Shown one piece after another: positions 41,210 through 59,665 of a stretch of 64,000 bases of DNA (positions within the stretch are counted from its first letter, which is position 1; every line of letters starts with the position of its first letter). The DNA comes from Candidatus Poribacteria bacterium (GTDB lineage Bacteria; Poribacteria; WGA-4E; WGA-3G), in contig OZ242029.1 in NCBI GenBank assembly GCA_965205015.1, forward strand, positions 1,056,001-1,120,000, written 5' to 3'. Both the position numbers and the translations under genes were made by a program. Under the pieces are notes generated by a model that saw only the letters and a program-made list of their open reading frames with translations, had not been told where the DNA came from and made no database searches.

Positions 41210-41227
41210 AATGAGAACGAAATTAAG

Positions 41228-44200: not shown

Positions 44201-45199
44201 GAGCCCGCGAAGGCAGTGGACTTACTAAAGCGTGCAATCGCAACCAAACCAGATTACCAAAGGGCATACTACAACCTTGCTGAAACTTACTTTGAAATGA
44301 AAAATTTACAAGCCGCAAGTGAAACACTTCTTGAGTCTTTAAGGCTTGATGCCGACGACCAAGACACTCTTAAACTACTAAAGAATATACAGAATGTCTA
44401 TTTAAAACAAGGACGCAATTACTTTAGACAGAATAACCTTGAGGCAGCAGAAATTTCTGTGAAGGCAGCCTTAAGGCTTGGTTCTGACTATCAACGCGTG
44501 CGTAGACTTTGGAATGATATAAAATCAGGTTACTACAAACAAGGTCTCGCTTGCATAGAAAACGGCATGTATGCTGCAGCCATAGGCCTTCTCCAGAAAG
44601 CAGTAAAAATGGATCCGAGGTTTAAAGAAGCACACTACTCACTTAGTGAAACTTACTTTAAGATGGGAGATTTTGAAACTGCCGAAGAAAAAGTAAGACA
44701 GACATTATGGATTGATCCAAACTATGAACTGGCATCCTGCCTTTTGATATCTATAAAAGAAGAATATTACAAGCGTGGTTTGACATCCCTTGAACAGAAT
44801 GAATGGAAGGCAGCAGAAAAATTCGCGAAAGAAATATTGAGAATTGATCCAAACTATGAACCAGCATATAGACTCTTAAAGCAAGCGTGTTACGAACTGG
44901 GCCTCGCCCATTTACAAAAGGGAGCACATTCCAAAGCTATAAGTCCACTTCGGAAAGCAAAGGATATTGATCCAAATTGTGAAAGAACGCGCTACTCCCT
45001 TGGATTTGCCTACTTCAAATTGGACAGGTTAGAAGAGGCAAAACTGGAGATCAAAGGCGCATTATCCATTCAACCCAATTATTCTAAAGCCCGTGAACTT
45101 CTGTCAGAGATAAATGATCCCCGTAATTGGTTGAAATTAGGCAGGGCGAAGGTGCAACGATGGACGCGTCGGATAATAAACCATATCGGGTTCAGTTAA
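41228..45199 (+). CDS. UvrD/PcrA-like helicase - RuvC nuclease - TPR array fusion
   Basis: LNPSQ, AGPGSGKT, VDEYQD, VGDDDQGIYGWRGA, QNYRS, TIHKSKGLEF, LYVAMTRA; RuvC VLGIDPG/AIAVE/YTPQHVK/HSADAIA; many TPRs. The ORF-track start at 41123 lies inside IS982. Confidence 0.9.
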   Translation: MSKFLEGLNPSQREAVTHTIGPLLIIAGPGSGKTRTVVHSIAYAIENGVMPEQILAFSFTVKASEELRDRVKENVGEEKGSLVNISTFHSFCRQVLREDIDKLGRGYARNFRALEENNQRKIVKNLARINEQRVRAEIEHIQSYKFPNPEEVLNFIKKCKAREISPSDAGPHAHEFHRSEDYIKIYESYEQFLKTKGWIDYENQQLFTEELFRSVPEVKTKWQNRFALIFVDEYQDTDPIQYRIVKALAESHQNLRVVGDDDQGIYGWRGADIQNILNFEKNYPNAKVISLGQNYRSTQKIVEISHALAEFNPDRRDKDLFTRNFEGEKVKYLHCDNDEEEAATIASFIQRSIDQGNWRPSDFAVLYRTNKQAYALKTALSDLDISIMTIHKSKGLEFPNVFVTGICRDLLPHYHNRDEKNWGEELRLLYVAMTRAKNWLCLSSYEEEGKFQHKRGRSPFLERGYIPSRLLESVETLESVMIPPSPPEMTVPVTTRETAEYIEPLPEKLLGDGMTVLGIDPGIQNVGWSITKKSPVGYTVLRSGTQITTGWQNTLVQTERTINKLITLYHPDAIAVEKLEGATEEWFRYVAGCVATIRNISDQHKIECQLYTPQHVKYIATNNRNACKLDVQKGVMRICNLQQIPEPHHSADAIATSLCYLRNYLNSSRFEGNKRKQEHYEVGCGYLDKKHYEAAIDTFKETINIDPVYTQAYYGLGRAYLAQNDLDGAETSAATALRLAENNHPDSQKLLDAIERYHSGCNFLNNSEWNMAIDKFQESINLGPTFTEAHCGLSRAYLEVGNLEAAKNATEEALRLRDDYLPARELLNDVKMRSYYKGRTYFHSEEYNQAIPEFQRAVKIGPDFKEAHRYLGEVYLKLGDLETAEKEAREALRVDATYERASVLLREIKQKHKEHGDDYRKKKMFTQALKSYQQALRIDNKYKEAYHNLGILYRRMKKYDKAIEAYQKAIDIDERSHVTYSDFSFVYREIGEPAKAVDLLKRAIATKPDYQRAYYNLAETYFEMKNLQAASETLLESLRLDADDQDTLKLLKNIQNVYLKQGRNYFRQNNLEAAEISVKAALRLGSDYQRVRRLWNDIKSGYYKQGLACIENGMYAAAIGLLQKAVKMDPRFKEAHYSLSETYFKMGDFETAEEKVRQTLWIDPNYELASCLLISIKEEYYKRGLTSLEQNEWKAAEKFAKEILRIDPNYEPAYRLLKQACYELGLAHLQKGAHSKAISPLRKAKDIDPNCERTRYSLGFAYFKLDRLEEAKLEIKGALSIQPNYSKARELLSEINDPRNWLKLGRAKVQRWTRRIINHIGFS

Positions 45200-45425
45200 T
45201 CCTTTGGAACTTGCGAATCAACTTCCCCGCACGCTGATTCAGCAGACAGCAGCAGTTTCTCACAATTGGGATGCTAATTCGCAATCCAACCATAAAGGAA
45301 TAGTTGTGCATAAAAGTCCGTTTAGGTATTTTCATGATGAGGCAGAATTGTTTGACTACGTAAGAGATCATACCTCTACTATTTTTGGTGAGGAAAATGA
45401 CCACAGGGGCGTGATTTTGAAGGGG

Positions 45426-45490
45426 TGTACTGCCTACGGTTTTTTAGACCACTCCCTAAAACAAGATTGTGCTACAATACAATCTCACTG
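45426..45490 (+). mobile_element. Isolated IS3-family left end
   Basis: TGTACTGCC..TTAGACCACTC..AAGATTGTG.TA.AAT..CTCA.TG closely matches 59418-59482, which precedes an IS3 orfA fragment. Confidence 0.65.
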
Positions 45491-46214
45491 GTGCGTTTCA
45501 ACGAATAATGATGGAATGTAAGTTCAATTCTTACTCGGTAAACCCAACATCCGTATATCTCACTCTAATGGCGTTGCTGGAAACGCTAACGTGGGAATCA
45601 AGAGGAAATGGCGCACTCCCAAGAACATAGGCAAAACTAAAGAGAGCAATCCCTTTAGTGTTCGGAATTGGAGCGTCCGACAGAACTCACATGGGTAAGC
45701 GAAAGTCGAATGCCTGAAAAATCCCGTCATGTCGAATACAATAGTCTTGAGCGGAAACGCAACAGTTGTAGTGCTATAAGGTGTAGCCACAAGTTACTAC
45801 ATCAATTGTGGAAATGCGGAGCATTCCCCCACAAACTGGAATAAATAGCACAAGGCACAATCTGTGTCCATCGGGACATAGGGTAACCCTAAATGAGTTG
45901 CGAAGTCTCTATACAGGAAGTTAGACAGAACCTAAACGGACTCAAGTAGTCCGATAGGTTGAGGAGATTAGGTAGTCTCGTGTGAGACGAGCATAATCAG
46001 GTTTACTGCTTTGAAATACTTACAGACCTCGTATCTCAATGGAGAAAATCACGCTTGCGTGTCTCCTTTGGATGTCATAAGTAAAGAAAAGTGGTCTATA
46101 TGACCTAACGTGTATAACACCACAGTAAACTGGAAGGTTTCATGTGCGGTGAAAGTCGCACGCACGGTTTGGAAGGGGAACCGTAGAGGGGCGACCCTCT
46201 ACGGCTACCTTAAC
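45491..46214 (+). ncRNA. ORF-less group II intron (probably degenerate)
   Basis: 5' GTGCG; domain V-like TGTGCGGTGAAAGTCGCACGCACGGTTT (~46137-46170); domain VI hairpin CCGTAGAGGG-gcga-CCCTCTACGG then CTACCTTAAC 3' end; no RT ORF. Confidence 0.8.
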
Positions 46215-46304
46215 TTTGCTAATTTTGTGTCCAAATTAATATTGGCACTTCAGTTGCGTGGATATGCAAACGGAGACTCAGGTCTCAGAAATTCCAATCA
46301 TAAA

Positions 46305-46919
46305 ATGAATAACCAACTTTTTCCAGAAGATCGATATGAAATAGAAGATATTCCAATACGAGACGGAATGTTATGTCTCTACCCATACCTTTTCTCGCCG
46401 GAAGAACGAGAAACCTTTTTTGCCCAACTCAGAGATCAGGTGGATTGGCAGCAAGAGGAAATCAAATTGTATGGCAGATCCATTCCGTTACCTCGTTTAA
46501 CCGCATGGTTTGGCGATGAAGGGAAAACCTATATGTATTCAGGCATAAACGTTGTGCCTGAACCGTGGACTCCAACTTTGTTAAAAATCAAAGACAGAAT
46601 AGAGGAGGTTTCAGAAATAACATTCAACAGCGTCTTACTTAACTACTACCGAAATGAACGTGACAGTGTGTCTTGGCACAGCGATGACGAACCCGAACTG
46701 GGCAAAAACCCGACGATTGGCTCGGTAAGTTTCGGGGATGTCAGGACCTTTCAACTCAAACACAAAACGGACACATCGCTAAAGATCAGCAGAGACCTGC
46801 CGGATGGCAGTTATCTCCAAATGGCTGGGAGTACCCAACACCATTGGCTACACCAGATACCAAAGCGGACCCGAAAAATAGGTTCGAGGATCAATTTAAC
46901 GTTCAGAGTCATATTATAG
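46305..46919 (+). CDS. AlkB-family 2OG-Fe(II) dioxygenase (ALKBH2/3-like)
   Basis: PRLTAWFGD, FNSVLLNYYRN, WHSDDE, W.HQIPK, RINLTFR. Confidence 0.92.
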   Translation: MNNQLFPEDRYEIEDIPIRDGMLCLYPYLFSPEERETFFAQLRDQVDWQQEEIKLYGRSIPLPRLTAWFGDEGKTYMYSGINVVPEPWTPTLLKIKDRIEEVSEITFNSVLLNYYRNERDSVSWHSDDEPELGKNPTIGSVSFGDVRTFQLKHKTDTSLKISRDLPDGSYLQMAGSTQHHWLHQIPKRTRKIGSRINLTFRVIL

Positions 46920-46951
46920 ACGCGCGGATGTTCCTTAAGGAAATCTAAAGT

Positions 46952-48388
46952 ATGATAGACCCAATTGTGATTGTCTATAGCAGCATTGTCGCTCTTATTA
47001 TCGGAGGACTTATAGGTGGGTTTCTCTATAAATCCATGTCTCGTCAACAGGACATAATATATACTACCCTTGAATTAGAAGAAGAACGCCACCGTCGCAA
47101 GGAACTTGAAAGTGCTTTATTGCAGGCCCGGCAGGAAGTCGCACAGCTCTCTCGCGAAAACAAACACATTTCCGGCACATTGACGCAAACCTCGCAACGA
47201 AACGAGCAATTCTCTAATACGTTGACACAAGAGAACCACGCCATTGCTTTAGAAAAAGAACGCGAGAATCGCGATAAAGTGGAAAACGCCCTACAGCAGA
47301 CACAGCAAGAAATCAAAAAAGAACGCGAGAACCGCGAGAGACTGGAACGTGCCGTTCGCCAGACACAACAGAAAGTAGAACAGCTCTCTCGCGAAAAAGA
47401 ACAACTCTTCGGTGCATTGACACAAGAGAGCCGGTATCGCGAGACCGTTGAAAGAAAATTGGCATTTTCCGGTACCTCTGGCTATCCTATCCTTCTCAAC
47501 GAGTTGTATGCCGCAAAACATCTAAAAACCGACATCCAAAAACGCGACTATCTTCAAGAGTTGCAAGGGGCTGCCGGGGCGTTATGGCATGAGTATCAAG
47601 GCACAGATATTTCGCCAGACTACTCAAGAATGGACTATCAAGAAGCATATCTGCTCTGCTACTTTTTGCCATATTCTCAACCTGTCCCTTACCTGCTCAA
47701 CCAGTTGGTTCTCAGGAAAGAGTTCCCCTATCAACTTCCCGAAACAGGCGTATTAACTGCCACCTTCTTTGGATGCGGGCCGGGGCCAGAGCTACTGGGT
47801 CTCATGCGTTATCTGCGATCCTTTCAAGCGTCCCTGTGTATTTCCGCTGCCTTGTTGGACAGGGAGACTTGGGCACATAGCAGACGTATTGTGTTTCAGC
47901 ATTTATTAGATCGCGCGTGGGATCCAGAGAACTACGATATCCAGGAATTCAAGACAGACATCGCAGGAAGCTCAGAAGTTTTTTTACCTGCCGATTCAGA
48001 AGAATGGGTAAAAAGGTCGGAGTTAATCGTCATTCAAAACTGCCTTAATGAAAGACGGAATGCCACGTCCGAACGGTCAATAGAGAACCTGAAGTGCCTT
48101 GTAGAGAAAATGAAAACTGGAGCGGTGATGCTAATCATTGAGCGTGGTACGTATGTTAGAAAATTACTGGGCGAATTCCGCTACATATTGCAAGAAGAAT
48201 TCAGGGGTCGCATACACGTTAGCAGCAAAATAGAGGGTGTTGAAAAAATTACACCAATCCTTGAGGTGATTCCTGAAGAACTGGAAGTTAATTTCTTGAG
48301 GGAATTGCAGGCCAACGCCATCAACTCCGTGGAATTTACGTGGATCGCCATCTCCAAGATGCCGTCAGGAACTGAGTCCCCTGTCTAA
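46952..48388 (+). CDS. N-terminal TM + repeated coiled coil + SAM-dependent methyltransferase-like domain
   Basis: TM IVYSSIVALIIGGLIGGFL; ER..R..LE.A..Q.QQ repeats; AYLLCYFLP, FFGCGPGPELLG, IQNCLNE, LIIER. Confidence 0.7.
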   Translation: MIDPIVIVYSSIVALIIGGLIGGFLYKSMSRQQDIIYTTLELEEERHRRKELESALLQARQEVAQLSRENKHISGTLTQTSQRNEQFSNTLTQENHAIALEKERENRDKVENALQQTQQEIKKERENRERLERAVRQTQQKVEQLSREKEQLFGALTQESRYRETVERKLAFSGTSGYPILLNELYAAKHLKTDIQKRDYLQELQGAAGALWHEYQGTDISPDYSRMDYQEAYLLCYFLPYSQPVPYLLNQLVLRKEFPYQLPETGVLTATFFGCGPGPELLGLMRYLRSFQASLCISAALLDRETWAHSRRIVFQHLLDRAWDPENYDIQEFKTDIAGSSEVFLPADSEEWVKRSELIVIQNCLNERRNATSERSIENLKCLVEKMKTGAVMLIIERGTYVRKLLGEFRYILQEEFRGRIHVSSKIEGVEKITPILEVIPEELEVNFLRELQANAINSVEFTWIAISKMPSGTESPV

Positions 48389-48500
48389 ATCAAGAGTGCG
48401 ATATAATACGCAGTATTTGGGGAGAGGACCTCTGTTGAATTTAAACAATATTACTTGTCTGAACTTTACCGATGTTGACGATACAAACGAAAAAGGAAAT

Positions 48501-51500
48501 ATGAATATGCACCAGAATCCTTTGTCAGAGTTTGAGCTAGGTCAGATTGTTTTCTTGAAAGCCGATCCCTCTACTCGGGGGGCTGTTGTAGCGATCCTGC
48601 CGGGTACCCCTGAGAACCGAATTAACGTTTTTGTTGATGGAAATGTTCATACTTTTTATCCATCTCAGTTGCAACTTGAGGTTCAAGATAGTTCTCGTGT
48701 CTTTTCATGTGATGACTTTCATGCTTACCTAACGGCACTCCAAATTCGGTACCCCGGTTTATCAACCTTATATTCGCTCAATGCAGCGCGGGTTGACTTT
48801 ATCCCCTATCAATACCGACCCGTTCTGAAATTCATCAAAGCGGACTTACCAAGGCTGCTCATTGCCGATAGTGTTGGTGTTGGTAAAACGATTGAGGCTG
48901 GTCTGATCTTACGCGAACTACAAGCACGTAGCAATATTGAATCTGTTCTCATTATATGCCCGCGTCCCTTGGTGGCTGAGCAAAAGTGGCAGCGGGAGAT
49001 GAAACGATTTGACGAAAATTTTGAACATTTGGACGGAGATAAGTTGCGATATTGTATCAATGAGATGCACCTTGACGGTGAGTGGCCAGAACAATACCAG
49101 AAGGTGATTCTCCCGTATTCATTATTGAATAACACACTCCTTTTCGGTCCAGGAGGGGGTCGTAAACGAAAGCGTGGCAAAGGGCTTTTAGACCTGGACC
49201 CACCGCCGCGCTTTGATCTGGTCATCGTTGACGAAGCGCACCATATCCGAAATCAGGGGACAGCCAACCACGAAGCAGTCCGGTTTTTCTGTGAAAATGC
49301 GGAAGCAGCGATATTTCTTACAGCAACCCCTATTCAGCTCGGCAGCCACGACCTATTTGTCCTGCTTAATGTTCTCCGCCCAGATCTGATTCTGGATGAG
49401 GAGAGTTTCAATCACATGGCGGAGCCAAATCACTTCATTAATCAAGCGGTTAACGCTGCACGGGCACAAGAGAGCGATTGGAAGCAGATCGCAAAGGAAG
49501 CTTTTGACCAAGCAGGTGCAACCGACTGGGGGCAATCAATTCTCAAGGCTAATCCTGAATTCAAGCGAATTAGAAATCAGCTTGCTGGGAGGCGTATTAC
49601 CCCTGAAGATCGCGTCCAACTCATCACCGATATAGAGGCACTCCACACATTTTCAGGAATAATCAATAGAACCCGCCGTCGCGATATCGGTGAGTTTACT
49701 ATTCGCAAATCACAGACCGTACCGGTGAAATTGACGACAGAGCAGGATGAACTTCATGAAGCACTCCTTGAAACGCAAGCGGAAATATTCCGCAGCTTAC
49801 ACGGCAATCAGAGTGTTAACTTTATGATGACAACGCTCCGTCGACAGTTGGCAAGTTGTTTGCATGGGCTCGAACCCCTCCTTGAGGATATTTTGAACCG
49901 CCGCCTTGACGAACTTGAATGGACGGAAGCTGATGCGATTGAGGCAATTCCCTCATCGGAATTAGTTACACATATCCGAGAACATGTGCAAGTGCTTCTT
50001 GAGAGAGCGAAGAATCTTGATTCAGAAGACTTGAAACTGGAAGCACTTCGGACAATTGTTCGTGATCGGCAAAACCTTCCGAATAACAAGGTTATGATTT
50101 TCAGCAGCTTCCGTCACACACTTTTCTATCTGCACGCACACCTAATGCGCGACGGATTTCGCGTTGGATTGATTCATGGGGGCACCCCGGACGAGGAACG
50201 CCTTGACCTCCGGAATCGGTTTGAAAAACCCCGTTCAGACCCCGACAGTCTTGACTTGATGCTCTTTTCGGAGGTCGGCTGTGAAGGGTTGGACTACCAG
50301 TTCTGTGACTGCATCGTTAACTACGATCTGCCGTGGAACCCAATGAAGGTTGAACAACGTATTGGTCGTATTGATAGGAGGGGACAAAAGAGCGAGAGCG
50401 TTAGCATTATCAACCTGATTACACCCGGAACCGTTGATGCAGATATTTATGAACGGTGTCTCCTTCGTATCGGGGTGTTTGAGAGCGCGTTAGGTGGAAA
50501 CGAGGAAATCCTGAGTGAAATCACAACGGAATTACAAGACATCGTCCAGAATCACGGGTTGACTCCAGCACAACGGAGAACCCAATTGGAAGTGTTAGCT
50601 GATAGCAAAATCGGATTGGTGTTGGAACAGGAAAAACTTGAGGCACAGCAATTAGACCTGTTTGGACTGCGCTTTCCTGAGGATAAGATGGAGAGAGAGG
50701 TCGAGGAAGCGTCGAGTTTCTGGTTATCTTCGGACTCAATACAGCGGCTCGTCACGCGTTATCTTCACCAAAAAATCGGGACAGCGCAAGAATTCATCCT
50801 CGGTGAAAAACCCCTTAAAACCCTTCGACTTTCTGAGGAAGCGCGGAATACCTTATTGGGTGATTTTCAGCAGTTCCCTCGGGAAAGGACACGTGTCTAT
50901 CGTGACTGGGAAAAATGGTTAAAAGGATCGGAGCAGCATTTATCTATAACCTTTGAGGCTGACTGTGCCACAGGGAATCCTGACGTTGTATTTATCATGC
51001 CGACCCACCCATTCGTGAAACAGGCAGCAGCGGTGTTAAACACAGACCAAGAAGTCGTTACAGCACTGAAGGTCAGAACCAACAAGGTGCCTCCGGGACG
51101 TTATGAGTTTGCTATTTACCAATGGCGCTTTCTTGGGATTCGGGAACATTTAGTCCTAAAACCGATTGCTTTATCAGAGGCGTTGGGGCCGCATCTTAAC
51201 GACCTACTTGAAAGGGCAGAAGATGGTGATACACAGGGAAGCCAAACCCCAATCCAGAAAGAAGCGTTAGAAAAAACGCACCAGCACCTATGGGCTGAAG
51301 CACGGGACAAACATCAGGAACGCATACAGGCGTTAGCAGATTACCGTAAAGAGAGTTTGTCAACTAGTCATCAAAAACGGGTAATGCTACTTGAAGATAA
51401 GATTGCACAAGCAACCGATCCAAGAATTCAACTGATGCGACAGAGCGAACTTGACAACGCTGAGTCTGATTACCGGCGGCGTATCCAAGTGTTTAACGAG

Positions 51501-51563
51501 GCAATGGCAAAAGCAGATGTTACCGCGGAACCGGTGGCGTATGGGATTCTGGAAGTGGAGTAG
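48501..51563 (+). CDS. SNF2-family helicase (RapA/DrmD-like)
   Basis: PYQ, LLIADSVGVGKTIEAG, IVDEAHH, LTATP, SEVGCEGLD, NYDLPWNPMKVEQRIGRIDRRGQ. Confidence 0.92.
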   Translation: MNMHQNPLSEFELGQIVFLKADPSTRGAVVAILPGTPENRINVFVDGNVHTFYPSQLQLEVQDSSRVFSCDDFHAYLTALQIRYPGLSTLYSLNAARVDFIPYQYRPVLKFIKADLPRLLIADSVGVGKTIEAGLILRELQARSNIESVLIICPRPLVAEQKWQREMKRFDENFEHLDGDKLRYCINEMHLDGEWPEQYQKVILPYSLLNNTLLFGPGGGRKRKRGKGLLDLDPPPRFDLVIVDEAHHIRNQGTANHEAVRFFCENAEAAIFLTATPIQLGSHDLFVLLNVLRPDLILDEESFNHMAEPNHFINQAVNAARAQESDWKQIAKEAFDQAGATDWGQSILKANPEFKRIRNQLAGRRITPEDRVQLITDIEALHTFSGIINRTRRRDIGEFTIRKSQTVPVKLTTEQDELHEALLETQAEIFRSLHGNQSVNFMMTTLRRQLASCLHGLEPLLEDILNRRLDELEWTEADAIEAIPSSELVTHIREHVQVLLERAKNLDSEDLKLEALRTIVRDRQNLPNNKVMIFSSFRHTLFYLHAHLMRDGFRVGLIHGGTPDEERLDLRNRFEKPRSDPDSLDLMLFSEVGCEGLDYQFCDCIVNYDLPWNPMKVEQRIGRIDRRGQKSESVSIINLITPGTVDADIYERCLLRIGVFESALGGNEEILSEITTELQDIVQNHGLTPAQRRTQLEVLADSKIGLVLEQEKLEAQQLDLFGLRFPEDKMEREVEEASSFWLSSDSIQRLVTRYLHQKIGTAQEFILGEKPLKTLRLSEEARNTLLGDFQQFPRERTRVYRDWEKWLKGSEQHLSITFEADCATGNPDVVFIMPTHPFVKQAAAVLNTDQEVVTALKVRTNKVPPGRYEFAIYQWRFLGIREHLVLKPIALSEALGPHLNDLLERAEDGDTQGSQTPIQKEALEKTHQHLWAEARDKHQERIQALADYRKESLSTSHQKRVMLLEDKIAQATDPRIQLMRQSELDNAESDYRRRIQVFNEAMAKADVTAEPVAYGILEVE

Positions 51564-51615
51564 CGTGCATAAAGATTTATATATTGTTTTCCTGTAGGTT
51601 AAGGAGGGATTTATT

Positions 51616-54600
51616 GTGTCAAGTGCGCAATTTGAACATATTCGGAGCATTAGACAGGATTTTCATCAAGGGAGTAAGCGGCTTAAAGAGAGTTCAAACA
51701 ATTCAATCAAGACGCTCGCTGATGATCTTTACAACAAGCATACGCATTTTATCTTTGAATTGATTCAGAACGCTGAAGACAACACATACGAAAAACAAGG
51801 GACTTATCCGCCTTATATCTCCTTTCAGTTAACAAAAACCGATCCGACTTGCACCCCTGGATCTAAGGGCGCGTTGATTATCCAAAATAACGAGATTGGC
51901 TTTCAACGCGATAATGTGGACGCTATTTGTGCAGTTGGTGCGACTACAAAAGAACAGGGACAAGGATATATTGGTGAGAAAGGCATAGGTTTCAAGTCTG
52001 TTTTTCGTGTAACAGGAAATCCTCATATTTTTTCTAATGGTTACCATTTCTGTTTACCCGAGTATGATGCGGAAACTGGGCTTGGATACATTGTACCACA
52101 ATGGATTGATAGCCCGCCAGAAGACCTATATCTCTCTGAAACTCATATTATTCTGCCGTTAACGAAGCCGGATTTTGGATATGAGACGATTGAGCAGATG
52201 CTACAAGATATTGAGCCAGAGACTCTTCTTTTTCTCTCAAAACTTGAAGAAATTCGAATTGGAACCGATACTGGAGATAATCTGACTATTTTGAAAGATA
52301 GTACAGCAATACCAGAGGTTGCAGTCATAGTTGAAGGTAATAAGCAGGGGAAAGTTTTCTCTAAGTCGGATAGTTTCTTGGTGTGCACCAAACGTTTTGA
52401 TAGACCTGTAGAGATTCGTCATGAGAAACGAAACGGAATAGAAAATCGAGATATCTCAGTTGCATTTCCATTGGATGAAAAATCAACTGCGATTGGAAAA
52501 ATTTTTGCCTATCTTCCTGTCCGATCGGATACCGGATTCCCATTTTTAATTAACGCCGATTTCATTCTACCCAGTTCGCGTGAAGATATTCAGGATGTAC
52601 CTTGGAATTACTGGTTGATGGACTGTGTGGCAAATTTGGTTACATCTGAATTATTACCGCTTCTAAAAGAAAAGCGACTTTTAGGCGTTAACTTTCTTGA
52701 AGCACTTGCCAACCGACTGAATAATCTTGTGTATGATGGAGATAGTTTGTTCTATTCTATTTTTAGGGGAGTTTGTAAAGCCCTGAAAAACGAGGCGTTA
52801 CTCCCTACCAGCGATGGCGAGTTTGTATCTGCGCGAAACGCCGCACTCACGCGTTCCGATGCAGTTAGAAACCTGATCACCCCCGCTCAATTACGCATAC
52901 TTTTGCGTTCTAACGCTGATCGTAATGTTCCACGCAAATGGCTATCTGCTGAAATCACGCTAGACCGAACTCCATATCTCCGTAGCTACCTCATGGAGAT
53001 TCTTGGAATTGAAGAAGTCACACCTGATATGTTTGCCCGTAGGCTCACCAAAGAATTCCTTTCCGCACAGACTGACGAATGGTTTGTCAAATTCTACAAA
53101 TTTTTATCCGAACAGCCCGCATTGTGGCGTTCCAACGGTGCCGTTCTAAGAACCAAACCGATCTTGCGTCTCCAAGATGGAAGGCATGTGAATCCACCTC
53201 AAGAAGATTCCGTTCCTACGGCCTATTTGTCACTTGATAAGACTCCTGACACTTCATTGCCGATTGTGAAATGGGAAATTACCCAAGATAAAAGTGCCTA
53301 TCGGTTTCTAAGAACGTTAGGCGTTCAAGAATGCGACATCGTTGCGGAAGTCATTGAAAAGGTGCTCCCAAGATACAAGAACAAGATGTCGCCAGTTCCC
53401 ATTAACGAGCATCTACAGGATTTTGACAAAATTCAACGGGCATATAACACAGATTCAATAGAGAAAAAAGAGCAGCTTAAAACAATGCTGCGAGAGACCC
53501 CTTTCATTCGGGCAGAGGAATCGGACAAAGATGGAAATGTCTACTTTGAACCCGAGTGTCTCTATTTTGGCGATAATACTTTGCGTTCATATTTCGCTAA
53601 CAACCCTTCATGTGCCTTTGTTGATCTTGATATTTATCCGCCTTCTGCCAAATCGTTGTTCGGCGATTTAGGGATTTTGGGTTCTGTACGAATTCACAGG
53701 GAACCGGAGGATTCGCAAGGGTACGTTACGATTGTGAATGAGCGTGGAAACCACCAGAGAGGATGCTTCGGGTTTGATTATGGTATCACCGTTGATGGAT
53801 TAGAACACGCTCTCAACACCCCAACTCTTGAGAAAAGTTCTTTCATTTGGAATCACATCGCTATTCCTAATGCAGATTGCATTAAAGGGTTTGTGGAAAA
53901 GTCCAGTACCCAAACTTATAGTAAGAGTTCGTTTGAGGAGATTGAATCCTATTATTTTGGACGTTTGTTAATTGATACTGTATGGCTTCCTGATTCCGAT
54001 GGAAACATGCACAGACCGAGTGAAATTACTCTTGATGATCTTCCCGCTTCATTCAAGAAGGATGAAGAATTGGCAAAACAACTTGGTATGCCAATTAGCA
54101 AAACTCGGATAGTTGACAAGGTTGCCCCAGAAATTGGTGTATCTTCGGAGATTCTCAATGGGATCGTTAATGCCTCACCGGAAATGCTTCAGCAAATTGA
54201 ATCACTGTTACAGTTAGGACCTGACTTTGGTCATTTGCCACCCTCTCCGTCCCCCCTTTTCGATGGCTTGTCGTCCTCTCAAACTACCGCTTTCCCAGTG
54301 CGTTCTGTATCGAACCCGGCGCGACGAAAAAAAATGATTCTCGCAGAACTTAAAGAGTCACCGGACCAGGAATATGTTGAAAAAAGAAGGAGTGTTCGGA
54401 CGACGCGGAGTAAGATCGATCCTAAAACGTGGCTCAGTGCTGAATATATGAATGATGACAGTCAAATTATATGCCAAATCTGCCAAGAGGTGATGCCGTT
54501 TAAATATAAGGGCGAAAATTACTATTTTGATGCGGTGGAGATGCTGAAAGGGTACTTCACGAAAGAGTACGAGGCACAATTCTTAGCACTTTGTCCAGAG

Positions 54601-55347
54601 TGCTCTCCGAAGTATAGAACATTTATGAAGCAAGTGCCTGAAGCCATGGATGCCTTGAGAAAACAACTCATGGATTCGGATGATGCGAGTGGTTTTGAAG
54701 TTCCGTTGAAACTCGGTGACACGAATACAAGCCTCCGTTTTGTGGAGAGGCATTGGCTTGATATAAAATCAATTTTGAGTTTTTACGAAGATCAGTCAAA
54801 GCAGTCTATTGAAACATCTGATTCAGGTGAAAATCAGGTAGAACCGAAGGAGTCGCTACCTGTACAACCGGACGAAAAAAAGGAGAATTGGAATGCGGAT
54901 CAAATGCTATCCCAATTTTTCGCGCAACCCGTCCGTTTTATTACTTATACAGGTATAAAGGATTTGGCAGAAGTCGAAGCGAGTCAATATGATATAAAAG
55001 GCACTGATACCAAGGGTGCTAAAATTAAGTTCACGAAACTGGACATCCTATTTGCTTTTCCCAAAGAGAAGATGCCAGTCTTAAAACCTCATGTAAAGGT
55101 AAGGAGACCGTTAAAAAACAAGAATCTCCAACCCGTTGAAATTTATGAAAATCAATTTCGAGTTTCAGACAAACGTCTCACGCAAGTGAAAGAGAACAGA
55201 TCCAAAGTGGAGGTTGTCGCTCGAACTGGACATGTCTTGAGCGGCTGGATCCAACATTTCGACAAACACGTTCTCTATATGCGAGTCGGAGAAAAGGTCG
55301 TAATCGTCTATCGACACGGCTTGTTTGGATTTACAATTGGGAAATAA
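51616..55347 (+). CDS. Sacsin/NOV-like GHKL ATPase with degenerate HNH-like Zn domain and C-terminal Hfq/Sm-like domain
   Basis: HFIFELIQNAED, IGEKGIGFKSVF, FPFLINADF; CQIC...LCPEC; tail VEVVARTGHVLSGWIQHFDKHVL...IVYRHGL. Confidence 0.82.
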   Translation: MSSAQFEHIRSIRQDFHQGSKRLKESSNNSIKTLADDLYNKHTHFIFELIQNAEDNTYEKQGTYPPYISFQLTKTDPTCTPGSKGALIIQNNEIGFQRDNVDAICAVGATTKEQGQGYIGEKGIGFKSVFRVTGNPHIFSNGYHFCLPEYDAETGLGYIVPQWIDSPPEDLYLSETHIILPLTKPDFGYETIEQMLQDIEPETLLFLSKLEEIRIGTDTGDNLTILKDSTAIPEVAVIVEGNKQGKVFSKSDSFLVCTKRFDRPVEIRHEKRNGIENRDISVAFPLDEKSTAIGKIFAYLPVRSDTGFPFLINADFILPSSREDIQDVPWNYWLMDCVANLVTSELLPLLKEKRLLGVNFLEALANRLNNLVYDGDSLFYSIFRGVCKALKNEALLPTSDGEFVSARNAALTRSDAVRNLITPAQLRILLRSNADRNVPRKWLSAEITLDRTPYLRSYLMEILGIEEVTPDMFARRLTKEFLSAQTDEWFVKFYKFLSEQPALWRSNGAVLRTKPILRLQDGRHVNPPQEDSVPTAYLSLDKTPDTSLPIVKWEITQDKSAYRFLRTLGVQECDIVAEVIEKVLPRYKNKMSPVPINEHLQDFDKIQRAYNTDSIEKKEQLKTMLRETPFIRAEESDKDGNVYFEPECLYFGDNTLRSYFANNPSCAFVDLDIYPPSAKSLFGDLGILGSVRIHREPEDSQGYVTIVNERGNHQRGCFGFDYGITVDGLEHALNTPTLEKSSFIWNHIAIPNADCIKGFVEKSSTQTYSKSSFEEIESYYFGRLLIDTVWLPDSDGNMHRPSEITLDDLPASFKKDEELAKQLGMPISKTRIVDKVAPEIGVSSEILNGIVNASPEMLQQIESLLQLGPDFGHLPPSPSPLFDGLSSSQTTAFPVRSVSNPARRKKMILAELKESPDQEYVEKRRSVRTTRSKIDPKTWLSAEYMNDDSQIICQICQEVMPFKYKGENYYFDAVEMLKGYFTKEYEAQFLALCPECSPKYRTFMKQVPEAMDALRKQLMDSDDASGFEVPLKLGDTNTSLRFVERHWLDIKSILSFYEDQSKQSIETSDSGENQVEPKESLPVQPDEKKENWNADQMLSQFFAQPVRFITYTGIKDLAEVEASQYDIKGTDTKGAKIKFTKLDILFAFPKEKMPVLKPHVKVRRPLKNKNLQPVEIYENQFRVSDKRLTQVKENRSKVEVVARTGHVLSGWIQHFDKHVLYMRVGEKVVIVYRHGLFGFTIGK

Positions 55348-55456
55348 TAAAGGCGACCTACAAATCACAGGTATCGATGCAACTTGAAAAAAGTGTATAG
55401 AAAGTTTTTTGTTTTACAATTAGGATAGACTATAGAGATGGAAGGGAGCACATTAC

Positions 55457-58400
55457 ATGCCAAGCGATTACAAAGCAATAACAGAATATAACGAAGATCA
55501 ACTGGGCAAGGATACGTCGTCTCGCAAGACTCAAGTTTCTATGTACTCGGACCCTACACACTTTGTATACGAGATTCTGCAGAACGCCGATGACCATGGC
55601 GCAACCGAAGTGCTTTTCAAACTCTCAAAAAATGAGATTGTAATTGAGCACAACGGTGAACCTTTCGAGGAGGAAAACGTCAGAGCAATTACATACTTCG
55701 GCAAGAGTACAAGCCGCGAAGACCTTGTAAAGACAGGGCGTTTCGGTATAGGCTTTAAATCTGTCTTTGCTTTCACAACGACACCGATTATCATTTCGGG
55801 GCCCGAGCATTTTCAGATATATGGGTTATATCGCGTCAGAGAATATCCATATCCAGAAGGTTTTTCTCCGTCCCGAACTCGCATTATTCTTCCATTCAAC
55901 CATGAATCCGAGCAACCGGACTTCGTGGAAGAACCTATGTTTCAGGAAGAGGCATATCAACAAATATCAGAATGTTTAATTGACTTAGATATGAATACAC
56001 TACTATTCACGCGAAACATTCAAGAGATTCGTTGGGAGATAGATAATCAATATGAGTGCTACTCGCGTGAAGATGAGATAGCAGGTAACGCCCGATTGAC
56101 AACAATTAAAGACGGTAAAAATGAGAATACGTATCTGGTTTTCTCAAAGATTCCAACTTGGGAAAATGAGGAGCATAAAGAAGTAGAGATTGCCTTCTCT
56201 GTAGATGAACAACATCAACTTTCGCCGATACATGGCGAATTTCTCCACGTTCTCTTTCCAACAACAGAAAAAACAGGTTTAAGGTTTATACTTAATGGAC
56301 CTTATCGTACGAATCCGGCTCGAGAAACCATATCAAAAACTGATGCTTTCAATCGCCATCTTATGCAGGTAACTTGCGAATTAATGAGAGAATTACTCCC
56401 GATACTCAGAAATATAAAACTTCTAACGCTTCAATTTTTGTCGATTCTTCCAAATGAAGAGGATTCCCTATCGATTTTCTATGCCCCACTCAGTGATATT
56501 GTCGTTAATGAATTTCGGAATACAAAATTGACCCCGACAAAACGGGGAGACCACGCTGCTGCATCGGAACTTTATCGAGTGAGCACGGAATTATCGGATT
56601 TGATTAGCGATGGAGATCTGGCGATACTTCTTGGAAAAGATTGTTCTCTACCTTTCAAAGTTGACGAAATTTCACAACAGCGTGACGAAAGAGGTCGATT
56701 TGTCCAAGATCCCAATGCCAAGTTTATAGATAATTTCCTAAATACATTGCGCATTCCTGATTGGAACACGTCCCAACTTGTAAGCAAACTACTTGCTCAG
56801 CCTGAAATAGTAAAGGTTTGGTTAAGGGAAAAGAGCATTGAGGACCACCAGATTCTTTATGCATTGCTTTATGATTTTCTGCGGCTCAGACAAAGTGGCA
56901 CCTACTGGTATTCATCTAATAGCAACCTGAAAAATAAGTTATCCGATCTTCCCCTCATCCCTTGTAGTGATAGTATCTACAGAGCGGGAGATAAATGCTT
57001 CTTTCCAAGTGATGATGTAGAACGCGACGAGCGTTTCCCTCGCGTTCTTAAGGGGGTTTATTCATCTGGAGGAGACGATGATCAAAGGTCGAAGGCTCGA
57101 GACTTCCTTGAAGCTATCAACGTCCGCCCAGTTGATGAAGTTGTAGAGATTGAGGCAATTTTGCAACAGCGATATGTAAGTGGGACGATTGCACTTCGTA
57201 AACCTCATCACAAAAGAGATATAGAAAGGTTCATTGAATTTGTAGAAAAGGAACCTGATAAGGCCATTTTGTTCAAAGACTACCATATATTTCAGCTAGA
57301 CAAAAGCGATTCAAAAACATGGTCGTTCCCTCGCAAAGCTTTCCTGGATACTCCTTATTGCAATACGGGTTTGAGAACTTACCACGCGATCCTTGATCTT
57401 AAAGATTCAGAGGGGCGGCGGTTGGCTATTTCACCAAAGTATGAAAAATTCGGCATAAACTTAGAGAAATTGGTAAAATTTGCCGAGGCGATAGGTGTCC
57501 AAACAAAGCTGGAGGCCATCATGCAACAGATTCCGCGCGACCATCCGGAATACAATTATCTTGTCACTGATGCCCCAGGTGAACGCATTACATACACATC
57601 GAAAAATGAAGATTACACCATCGATAAGTTTGATATTTTTTCCCGTATACCTGCAGAATTTTTTGCAAAATTTGGCGATATTGATAGAGCATTAGATACA
57701 GCAAAATTGATATGGCAAACGATGTGTTCCCAACCTCACAATCGTCTGGAAGCCAGATTTCGTAAGAATTCATCTTACTCTGATCGTGTTGGTACCTCTA
57801 GCCTTGTCCATGCTTTAAAGCAAGGTCGATGGGTTCCACAGAAAGATGGTGACTCTGTGTCCTTTGTGTGTCCTCGTGATGCCTTCCGCGAACATCTTCC
57901 TGAAAAAGATGGTTTTCCATGGCCTAAAGGTTACCCACACGATGCTGGTGACACTTGGCTCAAGGCGATTGAGTTTGGTAAGATTATTGATAAACAAAAA
58001 GAGGAAAACGCCCAGCAAAATCAAAAGGCAAAAGAGTTTGGATTTGATTCCGTGGATGAAGCCAACACAATGGCAGAGATAGCAAACACTTGGAAAGAGC
58101 AGGGGAAATCACCGGAGGAATCGCTCAAAAAACTTGTTGCCCAAGAGCGTCGTAAGGAATTGCTTATTATAGAACTTGACGACGCTGGGGAAAAAATCTA
58201 TAAAATCGTGCCAAGGAGTACTAAGGTCACCAGTAACACAATTGATCCGAGAACTGCTCTTAGAGCACAATATACGATGGATGAAAACAGCATGCACTGT
58301 CAGATGTGTTCAAAGGATATGCCCTTCAAAAAGCGGAATAGCGATGAAGATTACTTTGAGGCAGTGGAAGCATTAGGAAAGGGATACTTCTTCAAAGAAC

Positions 58401-58642
58401 ATGAAGCACAGTATCTGGCATTGTGTCCAGAATGTGCAGCAGAGTACAAAGAATACGTGAAGCGAGATCCAAAAGCACGTGAAACTTTCCATGACGCCCT
58501 GAAGAATTCGGATAGCCCCCAAATCCACTTGGCATCGAACGGGCGAACCATACGTATTTGGTTTGAAAACAAGCATTGGCAGGACCTGAAAACAATTTTA
58601 TACTATTACGAACACATATACGACTCTGATGATGCGGATTAA
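55457..58642 (+). CDS. Second sacsin/NOV-like GHKL ATPase with degenerate HNH-like Zn domain
   Basis: HFVYEILQNADD, GRFGIGFKSVF, LNGPYRTNPARE; CQMC..MPFK..YFEAVE..LALCPEC. Confidence 0.82.
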   Translation: MPSDYKAITEYNEDQLGKDTSSRKTQVSMYSDPTHFVYEILQNADDHGATEVLFKLSKNEIVIEHNGEPFEEENVRAITYFGKSTSREDLVKTGRFGIGFKSVFAFTTTPIIISGPEHFQIYGLYRVREYPYPEGFSPSRTRIILPFNHESEQPDFVEEPMFQEEAYQQISECLIDLDMNTLLFTRNIQEIRWEIDNQYECYSREDEIAGNARLTTIKDGKNENTYLVFSKIPTWENEEHKEVEIAFSVDEQHQLSPIHGEFLHVLFPTTEKTGLRFILNGPYRTNPARETISKTDAFNRHLMQVTCELMRELLPILRNIKLLTLQFLSILPNEEDSLSIFYAPLSDIVVNEFRNTKLTPTKRGDHAAASELYRVSTELSDLISDGDLAILLGKDCSLPFKVDEISQQRDERGRFVQDPNAKFIDNFLNTLRIPDWNTSQLVSKLLAQPEIVKVWLREKSIEDHQILYALLYDFLRLRQSGTYWYSSNSNLKNKLSDLPLIPCSDSIYRAGDKCFFPSDDVERDERFPRVLKGVYSSGGDDDQRSKARDFLEAINVRPVDEVVEIEAILQQRYVSGTIALRKPHHKRDIERFIEFVEKEPDKAILFKDYHIFQLDKSDSKTWSFPRKAFLDTPYCNTGLRTYHAILDLKDSEGRRLAISPKYEKFGINLEKLVKFAEAIGVQTKLEAIMQQIPRDHPEYNYLVTDAPGERITYTSKNEDYTIDKFDIFSRIPAEFFAKFGDIDRALDTAKLIWQTMCSQPHNRLEARFRKNSSYSDRVGTSSLVHALKQGRWVPQKDGDSVSFVCPRDAFREHLPEKDGFPWPKGYPHDAGDTWLKAIEFGKIIDKQKEENAQQNQKAKEFGFDSVDEANTMAEIANTWKEQGKSPEESLKKLVAQERRKELLIIELDDAGEKIYKIVPRSTKVTSNTIDPRTALRAQYTMDENSMHCQMCSKDMPFKKRNSDEDYFEAVEALGKGYFFKEHEAQYLALCPECAAEYKEYVKRDPKARETFHDALKNSDSPQIHLASNGRTIRIWFENKHWQDLKTILYYYEHIYDSDDAD

Positions 58643-58661
58643 TCGTTGCCAAAAACATGTT

Positions 58662-59027
58662 ATGTCAGAAGAAACAGCGGAATATCAGGTGAAGGCGAAA
58701 AGCGGGATTATGCATAACAACACACGAAACGAGTTTGCATCTTACGGTTTAGACATACTCAAGCGGTCAGTGCTACTGGTGTTATATGAAGGGACGGATA
58801 GCGTATATGAAAAATCACCATATCCACGATATCCAAATGGACGGATCCTCAAAGCAGGGCAGATTCGTGAAAAACTGAACATACTGCAACCGCGGCTCGT
58901 ATGTGCTAACACTAACTCTCTGATTCATGGCATCCTTGATCACCTACGGCATGATGGACATGCGTATCATTATGTTGGTGCCGGATGGGGAATCACAGAG
59001 AACGGAGTATCGGTCCTTGAAGGTTAA
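58662..59027 (+). CDS. Hypothetical protein, possible winged helix
   Basis: IREKLNI...LIHGILDHLRHDG...GWGITENG. Confidence 0.5.
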   Translation: MSEETAEYQVKAKSGIMHNNTRNEFASYGLDILKRSVLLVLYEGTDSVYEKSPYPRYPNGRILKAGQIREKLNILQPRLVCANTNSLIHGILDHLRHDGHAYHYVGAGWGITENGVSVLEG

Positions 59028-59072: not shown

Positions 59073-59399
59073 GTGAAACATCGCGTGAAATATTCTGATA
59101 TTACAAGCCAATGGGGCATTGGTATAATTACGAAAATAATGGATGATATATGGATAGCCGATATAATATTCTGTGGAGAATTCTTTGAAGATATTAATAT
59201 CCAGATATTGGATCGGGAACAGGCTGATTTAAATTTCGTAAGAGATGATATTTTTATATACGATGTTTGGAAAAAAGATGTACCACCGCCAGAAATAATG
59301 CCTGAAGCTCATTTTATCTTATGTGTACATAGTGTACGTCATTTGTCTGATGATATAGTGGATTTTCTAAAAAATGTTGATTTTCTCCAGCGAATATAA
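59073..59399 (+). CDS. Hypothetical protein (AT-rich, uncertain)
   Basis: 108-aa ORF with no recognisable motif. Confidence 0.35.
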   Translation: MKHRVKYSDITSQWGIGIITKIMDDIWIADIIFCGEFFEDINIQILDREQADLNFVRDDIFIYDVWKKDVPPPEIMPEAHFILCVHSVRHLSDDIVDFLKNVDFLQRI

Positions 59400-59417
59400 G
59401 ATGGTTCTCCAAAGGGT

Positions 59418-59665
59418 TGTACTGCCACCGGAAATTTAGACCACTCTCCAATATAAGATTGTGGTATAATGACACTCTCATTGAAAGGAACATCTGATAG
59501 CGAAACGAAAACGAAGAAGCTTCACTCCTGAGTTTAAAGCCTCAGTTGTTCTTGAAGTAGTCAGGGGTGAAAGTTCACAATCGGACATTTATCATACGGG
59601 TGTATCACCAGAAACGTCCTCACTCGGTGTTAGGGTATCCGACATTTCTTGAATTTGAACGACAC
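59418..59665 (+). mobile_element. Internally deleted IS3-family remnant
   Basis: Left IR TGTACTGCC; orfA start KRKRRSFTPEFKASVVLEVVRGE joined almost directly to the orfB end YHQKRPHSVLGYPTFLEFE. Confidence 0.75.

Follow-up and report, generated by a model that had tools for sequence, protein, structure and literature searches.

A candidate defence cassette of a SNF2-family translocase and two divergent Tiamat-like ATPases in a Poribacteria genome

TmtA is reportedly a single-gene anti-phage ATPase-nuclease of the GHL class, the Tiamat protein of Bacillus cereus being its prototype. Here we analyze a locus that encodes relatives of this protein, in a stretch of 64,000 nucleotides from a Candidatus Poribacteria bacterium (assembly GCA_965205015.1, contig OZ242029.1, positions 1,056,001 to 1,120,000; the whole of this stretch is called the window below), where the gene of a SNF2-family ATPase/translocase is followed on the same strand by the genes of two Tiamat-like ATPases, A and B (Table 1). 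In the available part of a recent preprint (Yuan et al. 2026, 10.64898/2026.09.30.754977, preprint, October 2026), Tiamat is described as a GHL ATPase joined to a DUF3684 core and a PD-(D/E)xK nuclease, and the B. cereus protein shows both ATPase and DNase activity. The same text describes Tiamat-like types in which the nuclease is replaced, including Type IV-A with an HNH-like fold devoid of catalytic residues, and reports conserved helicase neighbours of superfamily 2 (SF2), Swi/Snf included, that are often fused to a nuclease (Type IV-B among others). The tree presented there sets Tiamat and sacsin apart from MORC and paraMORC. According to the accessible text of an earlier study, GHKL ATPases of the latter two groups occur in restriction-modification-like operons together with SWI2/SNF2 helicases and HNH nucleases (Iyer et al. 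2008, PMC2292703), and the accessible text of another reports independent fusions of HEPN with SWI2/SNF2 as well as a HEPN domain in sacsin (PMC3710099). In the literature on Tiamat or DUF3684 in conjunction with SNF2- or helicase-based defence, only the preprint was found.

Comparison of the Poribacteria locus with these systems and with its relatives in other genomes points to a functional unit at 48396-58642 that consists of SNF2 and two paralogous Tiamat-like ATPases and that we regard, with moderate confidence, as a horizontally mobile defence cassette against phages and plasmids. The core appears to belong to the recently described kind of locus in which a Tiamat-like protein is accompanied by a helicase, and is very probably a variant form within this newly recognised family of anti-phage defences. 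Judging from their sequences, all three core proteins keep their ATPase motifs.

The conservation of the locus was assessed by aligning 21 homologues of ATPase A and scanning contigs of one genome per species; among 301 stretches with a relative, the best 80 were kept and gave 65 loci (designated by L numbers), every open reading frame (ORF) of which was searched with ten window proteins (phmmer, E <= 1e-5). Of the 56 loci with at least 3.3 kb of upstream sequence, 53 have SNF2 immediately before the ATPase gene on the same strand, a count that comprises 52 directly scored loci and L015, whose ATPase gene is split. SNF2 is missing upstream in L032, L049 and L053, and at three of the nine loci without upstream room its 3' end is visible at the contig edge. 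The SNF2 ORF is full-length in 47 of the 52 scored loci and fragmented in the others (L011, L017, L025, L027 and L035), and the gap between the two genes ranges from -394 to +137 nt in 41 of the 52. When the approximately 900 genes of the loci were clustered, no other family was found in more than nine loci. Across phyla and on plasmids alike, the genes of SNF2 and the ATPase are passed on together, side by side and in the same orientation.

The loci come from Poribacteria, Latescibacterota, Chloroflexota, Nitrospirota, Thermodesulfobacteriota, Bacteroidota, Cloacimonadota, Acidobacteriota, Planctomycetota, Pseudomonadota and Tectimicrobiota, with a single archaeon, Methanoculleus, among them. 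A Thermodesulfobacteriota metagenome-assembled genome (MAG) has a SNF2 that shares 67% identity with the window protein across 1017 aligned positions, and in related Poribacteria the pair resides at two other chromosomal sites. Two plasmids carry it as well, one from Methanomethylovorans and one, conjugative, from Ensifer; in the latter, the identity of SNF2 is 46% and the pair is succeeded by a gene for a RecB-like nuclease. A further copy lies on a phage scaffold that is unverified.

Additional genes accompany the pair in individual loci. A large gene of the superfamily 1 (SF1)-helicase/RecB-like nuclease type comes after it in L066 (10000-13389; the Ensifer plasmid, annotated as TM0106 family) and L055 (14545-17988; RNase_H_2 with AAA_11/12), and may be a third component that supplies a nuclease in some relatives. 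Nine loci from four phyla (L013, L014, L015, L016, L019, L020, L024, L033 and L036; about 9255-9970) carry a gene of approximately 210 aa between SNF2 and the ATPase that has no match in Pfam or PADLOC; its profile matches the window ORF at 29161-30195 (4.3e-11) and, weakly, the ATPase ORFs of L003 (6e-7) and L004 (6e-6), for which the position within the ORF was not recorded. Also located between the partners are a DUF3223/HamC-like gene (L009, 9224-9832) and an AAA_15/AAA_21 ATPase resembling OLD/AriA (L018, 7828-9585; L026, 7649-9667). Fragments of Tiamat-like genes upstream of SNF2 in L009 (5044-5883) and L012 (3361-3966) suggest past cassette replacement at these sites. Other Poribacteria possess a third Tiamat-like type, lacking both SNF2 and the Zn domain described below, just upstream of cysK-cysH (L049, 9854-13609; L053, 9926-13630); because these genes share their chromosomal neighbourhood with the window cassette, the site looks like a hotspot.

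Table 1. Coordinates (window positions) of the core genes, their domains, the neighbouring genes and the borders
Feature	Coordinates	Strand	Basis and remarks
SNF2-family ATPase/translocase, DrmD/RapA-like, short form without N-terminal HEPN, 1055 aa	48396-51563	+	PF00176, PF00271; core part 1
Tiamat-like (sacsin-type GHL) ATPase A, 1243 aa	51616-55347	+	PADLOC TmtA PDLC03972, 1.3e-105 over aa 7-807; core part 2
Zn-ribbon/HNH-like C-terminal domain of ATPase A	54310-54801	+	profile match, 3.2e-68
Hfq/Sm-like tail of ATPase A	55168-55320	+	PF17209 Hfq, E 1.5e-6, 28.2 bits (cut-off 27)
Tiamat-like ATPase B, 1061 aa	55457-58642	+	PADLOC TmtA, 5e-61; core part 3 in Poribacteria
Zn-ribbon/HNH-like C-terminal domain of ATPase B	58142-58621	+	profile match, 2.3e-58
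AlkB-type 2-oxoglutarate (2OG)-Fe(II) dioxygenase, 204 aa	46305-46919	+	PF13532, E 2.7e-37; phrog_21963 'alkylated DNA repair', 3.3e-31
Membrane-anchored coiled-coil protein with predicted class I S-adenosylmethionine (SAM)-methyltransferase fold, 478 aa	46952-48388	+	AlphaFold2 (AF2) model, Foldseek
Small winged-helix-like protein, 132 aa	58629-59027	+	89 family representatives; Mrr_N match in 5/43 members
108-aa ORF	59073-59399	+	region of 0.375-0.39 GC
Insertion sequence (IS)-like terminal sequence, copy 1	45420-45478	+	59-nt direct repeat; marks the left border of the cassette, outside the cassette
IS-like terminal sequence, copy 2, with truncated IS3-type OrfA remnant	59412-59649	+	repeat 59412-59470; right border

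The SNF2 protein aligns end to end with the PADLOC DrmD model PDLC02623 (2.8e-109, 364 bits) and scores 314 bits against NCBIfam DISARM_DrmD, under the cut-off of 610; in a sequence search of the Protein Data Bank (PDB), its closest solved relative is RapA (1e-30). Among 39 homologues, the Walker A motif GVGKT, the DEA motif and motif VI do not vary. A longer form of SNF2, approximately 1190 aa with an N-terminal Swt1-like HEPN domain, occurs in 21 of the 53 linked loci; Pfam PF18731 matches all five long-form proteins tested, and a local HEPN profile agrees. No HEPN domain was found on the SNF2 of the window, and a profile made from 20 HEPN-SNF2 N-termini detected no standalone HEPN at E <= 10, either in the window or among the short-form loci.

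Both ATPases match the sacsin domain PF25794 (2e-13 for A and 1.4e-18 for B) and NF047352 P_loop_sacsin, in agreement with the twin sacsin-like ATPases named in an earlier note on this DNA. They are paralogues, with 30% identity over the ATPase region and 40% over the C-terminal domain. In ATPase A, the ExxxNxxD and GxxGxG motifs (E48, N52, D55, G120/G123/G125) are invariant among the 21 homologues, and both motifs are also visible in ATPase B when the two proteins are aligned. A sequence search of the PDB with ATPase A matched sacsin (5v44-47) at E 0.006. The TmtA model covers aa 7-807 of ATPase A; no Pfam match to the DUF3684 core was obtained at E <= 0.01, or at E <= 5 on pieces, and there is no match to a DUF3883/PD-(D/E)xK nuclease in either protein.

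The C-terminal domain shared by the two ATPases comprises approximately 160 aa, with CQxC...LxLC, a His and an Asp (nearly) invariant in 36 sequences. The AF2 model of this domain from ATPase A has a predicted local distance difference test (pLDDT) score above 90 over most of model residues 10-190. Foldseek searches of PDB and BFVD with the model gave no match at E <= 0.001, and the weak leads are the HNH enzymes McrA (E 0.097, prob 0.80) and TagI (E 1.0, prob 0.44). A CxxC...C pattern is present, and the window proteins have no His at the position that, from the HNH motif, we take to be catalytic. The profile of the domain matches 51 of the 53 SNF2-linked loci, the other two (L041 and L062) having an incomplete ATPase ORF, and none of the three loci lacking SNF2 (L032, L049 and L053). 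Because the domain tracks the presence of SNF2, it is the best candidate for a functional or physical link to the motor. A complex prediction for SNF2 residues 40-140 and 500-1055 with the C-terminal domain of ATPase A, made without controls, gave a score of 0.00 and a mark of 0.32 and says nothing either way. The domain of ATPase B also weakly matches phrog_17873 (3.9e-4, a 69-position profile) and phrog_15103 (1.8e-3), small phage families of unknown function; phage proteins that resemble the domain could be mimics.

The tail behind the Zn domain is variable. An Hfq/Sm-like form is shared by 25 of the 120 listed homologues of ATPase A, four others have a DUF7669 tail, and elsewhere none is present. 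The tail of ATPase A in the window matches Hfq in the PDB (1kq1) at E 0.0017, and Foldseek relates it to Hfq with prob 0.90-0.92 over 41 columns, in a stretch that is modelled with low confidence. ATPase B has no Hfq-like tail.

The two ATPases also differ in their phylogenetic position. A quick IQ-TREE phylogeny built from 79 rows of the N-terminal 460-520 residues places ATPase B in a deep separate clade with 99% support in the Shimodaira-Hasegawa-like approximate likelihood ratio test (SH-aLRT), sister to a group that includes L052, L049 and L053, a placement for which the program warns that long branches meet. On this tree, B does not appear to be a recent copy of A. In L012, the gene order is SNF2-A-B and the start of B overlaps the stop of A. 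Comparison by eye of the homologue lists (the best 120 of 2349 for ATPase A and the best 120 of 1017 for ATPase B) links listed A and B homologues on 8 further contigs of matching size, including the NCBI locus tags OXI61_14060 and OXI61_14050. Furthermore, the sister pair P0006 and P0007 among the A partners mirrors P0213 and P0238 among the B partners. L012 and the 8 coincidences of contig size suggest that ATPase B recurs with A in Poribacteria. In the Terriglobia MAG of L059, two ATPase genes are arranged around one HEPN-SNF2; because they belong to different clades, the twin theme seems to have arisen more than once.

The position of ATPase B bears on one alternative, namely that two systems are stacked at this site, SNF2 with ATPase A being one and ATPase B an independent, single-gene Tiamat-like defence alongside it. 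The deep separate clade of B, whose nearest sampled relatives include the SNF2-less L049 and L053, and the 109-nt gap between A and B in the window are compatible with such a division, as are the small number of B homologues that match the contig size of a listed A homologue (8 of the 119 others listed) and the ability of canonical Tiamat to work as a single gene, as stated in the available text of the preprint (10.64898/2026.09.30.754977). However, B keeps the C-terminal Zn domain, which in our sample is confined to SNF2-linked genes and is lacking in L049 and L053. Moreover, the adjacency of A and B recurs with partial co-phylogeny, to the point of gene overlap in L012, and L059 provides an independent case of two ATPases around one SNF2. 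On balance, we consider stacking of two systems fairly unlikely.

Another possibility, which we deem unlikely, is that the pair of SNF2 and the HNH-like ATPase forms a widespread, mobile and separate defence system that operates with no DNA nuclease and responds to RNA or transcription. This idea arises because the nearest solved relative of SNF2 is RapA, which is associated with RNA polymerase, because the motor carries a fused Swt1-type HEPN RNase in 21 of the 53 linked loci, and because the Poribacteria version has instead an Hfq/Sm-like RNA-binding tail on one of two alternative ATPases. The ATPase clamp would then sense invader transcripts or R-loops, whereupon SNF2 would stall or strip transcription and replication on that DNA. 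If this is true, the operon-level combination of HEPN and a sacsin-type ATPase would be a prokaryotic antecedent of the sacsin architecture.

Under the preferred interpretation, a mobile cassette of one SNF2 motor and two Tiamat-like ATPases, each ATPase would dimerise via its N-terminal GHL domain into an ATP-gated clamp, as in other GHL proteins. The middle region and the variable tail, Hfq/Sm-like in A and missing in B, would recognise nucleic acid or protein derived from the invader, and the C-terminal Zn domain would couple the ATPase to SNF2, which may translocate on DNA so that the genome of the invader is exposed, stripped or immobilised. As alternative sensor/effector subunits, the two ATPases could then share one motor. 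Because no canonical nuclease is recognisable in the window version, the killing step would be either a non-canonical activity of the HNH-like domain, with its invariant His and Asp, or interference without a nuclease.

The genomic context of the pair was surveyed by scanning the genes within two positions of it (148 of 149 cluster representatives, one leucine-rich repeat protein being left out) with PADLOC models, the hidden Markov models being used alone, without the system rules of PADLOC or DefenseFinder. A match at E <= 1e-12 was found within two genes of the pair in 24 of the 52 loci, or in 21 when four generic matches are set aside, and 32 of the 195 flanking genes fall in clusters whose representative matched. 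The matches include Type ISP/IIG and Type I restriction, Mrr, OLD/AriA-like ATPases, DarT, SoFic and several PDC candidates. Upstream of the cassette, the window itself contains ZorA/ZorB-like and T5orf172 genes, a DDE transposase and a UvrD-RuvC-TPR fusion.

The earlier note had united six co-oriented genes with short gaps in one multi-gene system. The coordinates and strands are as it stated: six ORFs, all on the plus strand, within 46305-59027, separated by 32, 7, 52, 109 and -14 nt. A seventh plus-strand ORF, of 108 aa, follows. The assignment of the first gene to AlkB is secure from its Pfam match, and HxD...H and RxxxxxR, presumably the motifs of this family, can be read in its sequence. 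Its ATG at 46305 sits inside a longer ORF (46110-46919, with a GTG at 46110); the ATG is the likelier start because the ORF from the GTG overlaps an intron-like RNA motif.

The label of a membrane methyltransferase (MTase)-like protein for the second gene agrees with its predicted fold. The AF2 model (mean pLDDT 80.5) has a transmembrane helix at 5-22, a coiled coil at 42-173 and a Rossmann-type class I SAM-MTase domain at 177-470. Sequence comparison gave no significant match in Pfam, PADLOC or NCBIfam and nothing below E 0.07 in the PDB. With the model, Foldseek returned at least 500 PDB matches at E <= 0.001; all 50 that were listed are methyltransferases, with BpumL the best (3.3e-8), and the TM score to Rsm22/METTL17 is 0.40. 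A feature search of the Atlas gave a score of 0.97 to clusters bearing Methyltransf_34. By its modelled fold, the protein belongs with the small-molecule, peptide and rRNA methyltransferases rather than with the DNA N6A, N4C or C5 enzymes, and none of the DNA-MTase models in Pfam and PADLOC matches it. The family has only 75 members in a large protein collection. Three diverged 55-nt direct repeats (65-78% identity) at 47079-47370, in the coiled-coil part of the gene, suggest that the coiled coil is internally duplicated.

For the 132-aa gene, the winged-helix label of the earlier note is moderately supported by the Mrr_N winged helix, with a best E of 2.6e-5 among the members that match, and by a sequence pattern that is winged-helix-like; the Atlas search produced leads at only 0.85-0.89, and a PDB sequence search with the family found nothing below E 0.66. 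The family consists of proteins of approximately 95 aa, most of which align from query residue 28, so that the real start is probably at 58710. The possibility that this gene is a standalone HEPN was rejected, the HEPN profile having found none in the window at E <= 10. The 108-aa ORF has no match in Pfam, NCBIfam, PADLOC or PHROGs.

At the phmmer threshold given above, none of the 65 related loci encodes a homologue of AlkB, of the MTase-like or winged-helix protein, or of the 108-aa ORF. Furthermore, by eye, none of the contigs of the 74 other MTase-like homologues matches in size those of the 119 other listed homologues of ATPase A. By these comparisons, the four ORFs do not appear to belong to the system; they look like neighbours added by accretion beside the cassette, in surroundings where defence-like and mobile-element genes abound. 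What stands of the multi-gene system is the conserved, ATP-driven module of SNF2 and the ATPases, to which AlkB, the MTase-like and the winged-helix genes do not belong in the relatives sampled. The synteny of SNF2 with two sacsin-like genes, which the note had suggested examining across genomes, is established for SNF2 and ATPase A, ATPase B joining them in L012 and in the coincidences of contig size. The note had itself named independent occurrence of the genes in relatives, or a match to a described system, as grounds against its proposal, and both apply in part because the four ORFs occur independently and the ATPases match a described system.

It is very unlikely that all six genes form one system, with a self mark written by the MTase-like protein and erased by AlkB, restriction carried out by SNF2 and the ATPases, and the winged-helix protein as regulator. 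Co-orientation and the short gaps speak for it, the methyltransferase fold is real at the level of the model, and the available text of the preprint reports DNA methyltransferases co-occurring with Tiamat only where a helicase is present (10.64898/2026.09.30.754977). However, three of the six genes are without homologues in the 65 loci, and the small MTase-like family does not share contigs, as judged from their sizes, with the listed relatives of ATPase A. In addition, the fold is like those of BpumL and Rsm22/METTL17, not like those of DNA-MTases, and the closest relatives of ATPase A on contigs of 20-25 kb have the B gene, not the MTase-like gene.

It is similarly improbable that the SNF2-GHL pair is no defence system at all and serves as a housekeeping chromatin, transcription or repair module akin to RapA-RNA polymerase or MutL-UvrD, as might be supposed from RapA as the best solved relative, from the AlkB gene and UvrD-RuvC fusion nearby, and from the approximately 14% of Tiamat-like proteins that, according to the available text of the preprint (10.64898/2026.09.30.754977), lie in non-defence neighbourhoods, because the distribution of the pair is patchy and horizontally transferred, with 67% identity across phyla, differing chromosomal sites in related genomes and plasmid copies, because decay is frequent, with the five fragmented SNF2 genes and the genes inserted between the partners in L018 and L026, and because restriction and toxin genes lie within two genes of it in 21-24 of 52 loci.

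Several observations weigh against the interpretation as a three-protein defence cassette. AlkB, the MTase-like gene and SNF2 are spaced so closely (32 and 7 nt) that they could be co-transcribed in this genome. Ties between listed B and A homologues are limited to the 8 of 119 already mentioned, and the loci were retrieved by patterns specific to ATPase A, leaving the neighbourhoods of ATPase B essentially unsampled. The count of 24 of 52 loci with a defence context stands without a measured background. Assignment of the C-terminal domain as HNH-like relies on a Foldseek E of 0.097 together with the motif pattern, and the window proteins contain no recognisable nuclease, PD-(D/E)xK being absent and SNF2 being devoid of HEPN. 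The link between the domain and SNF2 comes from related, phylogenetically structured sequences with three counter-examples only, and physical contact between SNF2 and the ATPase is putative. Finally, in the available text of the preprint (10.64898/2026.09.30.754977), the experiments concern the single-gene Tiamat of B. cereus only, and no pair of a Tiamat-like protein with SNF2 was tested.

The cassette and its neighbours are bordered by two IS-like terminal sequences in direct orientation. The earlier note had described these as similar IS3-like left ends. The repeats are real, with 80% identity over 59 nt, and their 29-nt core has exactly 2 exact occurrences in the window, both on the plus strand, with a match in 0 of 100 shuffles. 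The label 'IS3-like' derives from a 55-codon OrfA-like remnant at 59485-59649, whose match to HTH_Tnp_1 (E 0.0057, 17.3 bits) is under the cut-off of 24.1. Neither an intact transposase nor an inverted partner end was found at the two ends, and the core pattern has no minus-strand match in the window. A functional composite IS3 transposon was rejected, the two left-end-like sequences being in direct orientation and no intact IS being present. A blastn search of plasmids with the right-border region gave no match, Rfam at gathering thresholds gave 0 matches over the whole window, and promoter and terminator scans gave counts not above those of shuffles.

Just inside the first IS-like end, at 45491-46214, lies a possible ORF-less group II intron remnant that begins with GTGCG; RF00029 matches its domain V/VI at 46139-46214 (28.4 bits, E 0.0026, below the gathering score of 40), and the D1-D4 families of group II introns gave no match within 45491-46214. 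Directly left of this end is a gene for a 1358-aa protein (41123-45199) that joins a UvrD/PcrA-type helicase, the helicase part matching GajB and DRT-associated helicase models, to a RuvC-like nuclease domain (PF02075, 6e-17) and a long array of tetratricopeptide repeats (TPR). A DDE transposase gene on the minus strand (40253-41008; DDE_Tnp_1_3, 7.7e-16) is a further trace of mobile elements at the edge of the island. Farther upstream, ZorA2-like (193 bits) and ZorB2-like (229 bits) genes are followed by a gene for a 614-aa trypsin-like protease with an FlgD_ig domain (33534-37766 in all), and may constitute a Zorya type II-like system with an unusual third gene. A T5orf172/MUG113 (GIY-YIG-like) gene at 30605-31132 matches the PADLOC candidate PDC-S57 (115 bits) and precedes two unannotated genes.

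Few bacterial defence proteins have close relatives in eukaryotes; Tiamat is among them (NO VEIN and sacsin), and only its single-gene nuclease form has been studied. The locus described here is a clean example of a different branch, apparently more widespread in these samples, in which the nuclease is gone, SNF2 is obligatory and the C-terminal Zn domain tracks the partnership. It offers a concrete hypothesis of how a GHL clamp and a motor of the chromatin-remodeller type might cooperate against invaders, and the same question arises for MORC and SNF2 in eukaryotes. Having two divergent ATPases, an Hfq tail and a single motor, the variant in Poribacteria would be a natural experiment on subunit exchange and tail function. 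For annotation, matches to DrmD and TmtA at such loci are not to be read as DISARM or canonical Tiamat.

The statement of the earlier note that the locus fits neither DISARM nor BREX holds: models of DrmA/B/C, Brx and DNA methyltransferases gave no system match among the 46 window ORFs (11 searched at E <= 0.01 and 35 at E <= 1e-10). The likeness to DISARM is confined to SNF2 and its end-to-end alignment with DrmD, at an NCBIfam score below the cut-off. In contrast to DISARM, the window has no DrmA, DrmB, DrmC or DrmM and no cognate DNA methyltransferase (DrmMI/DrmMII), and the match of SNF2 itself to DrmA (1.3e-44) reflects similarity of the helicase core. Membership in DISARM was accordingly rejected, with DrmA/DrmB absent and no DNA-MTase model matching. 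BREX was rejected in the absence of BrxC and PglZ/PglX, the only resemblances being a BrxH-type similarity on SNF2 and a BrxP-like match on the 3'-phosphoadenosine-5'-phosphosulfate (PAPS) reductase cysH. Hma is a helicase-methylase-ATPase system in which the helicase HmaA is partnered by a DNA methylase and an ATPase; it was rejected as well, given that HmaA matches SNF2 at only 134 bits, below the DrmD score, and that neither the MTase-like protein nor the ATPases have an Hma match.

The MORC and paraMORC loci, as far as their description is accessible (PMC2292703), resemble the present locus in combining an ATPase of the GHKL superfamily, a SNF2 helicase and an HNH-type module in mobile conflict loci; they differ in that the window ATPases belong to another GHL branch and have the HNH-like module fused to them, without the catalytic His. 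With eukaryotic sacsin and NO VEIN, the locus shares the sacsin-type ATPase domain and, in 21 of the 53 linked relatives, a HEPN domain on the operon partner, sacsin having a HEPN of its own in the accessible text (PMC3710099). The bacterial proteins differ in being operon-encoded and linked to SNF2, and their HEPN is Swt1-like, carried by the partner protein and absent from the window.

Tiamat is a further close relative. Both have an N-terminal Hsp90/sacsin-like ATPase with intact Bergerat motifs, homology to TmtA extends through the core (aa 7-807), and the setting is a defence island. The window ATPases differ by carrying the Zn-ribbon/HNH-like domain in place of the C-terminal PD-(D/E)xK (DUF3883/NOV_C), by their obligatory SNF2 neighbour, and, at the window locus, by the presence of two paralogues and an Hfq-like tail. 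The Tiamat-like Type IV with helicase, to the extent that the available text of the preprint (10.64898/2026.09.30.754977) describes it, is similar in its conserved adjacent helicase, to which the SNF2 of 53 of 56 loci and the HEPN-SNF2 of 21 of 53 correspond. To the HNH-like fold without catalytic residues described there, the window domain can be compared through its weak Foldseek matches to McrA and TagI and through its CxxC...C pattern with no His at the HNH position, and the window SNF2 differs in having no nuclease domain. Type IV-B may be exactly the pair of SNF2 and ATPase analyzed here. The available text contains no mention of an Hfq tail, AlkB, a paralogue pair or 'two Tiamat'. The designation 'undescribed' in the earlier note thus does not extend to the kind of system, the ATPases matching Tiamat models. 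Because the combination of a Tiamat-like protein with a helicase is already described in the preprint, novelty is limited to the variant in which a SNF2 without HEPN is accompanied by two divergent ATPases, one of them with an Hfq-like tail.

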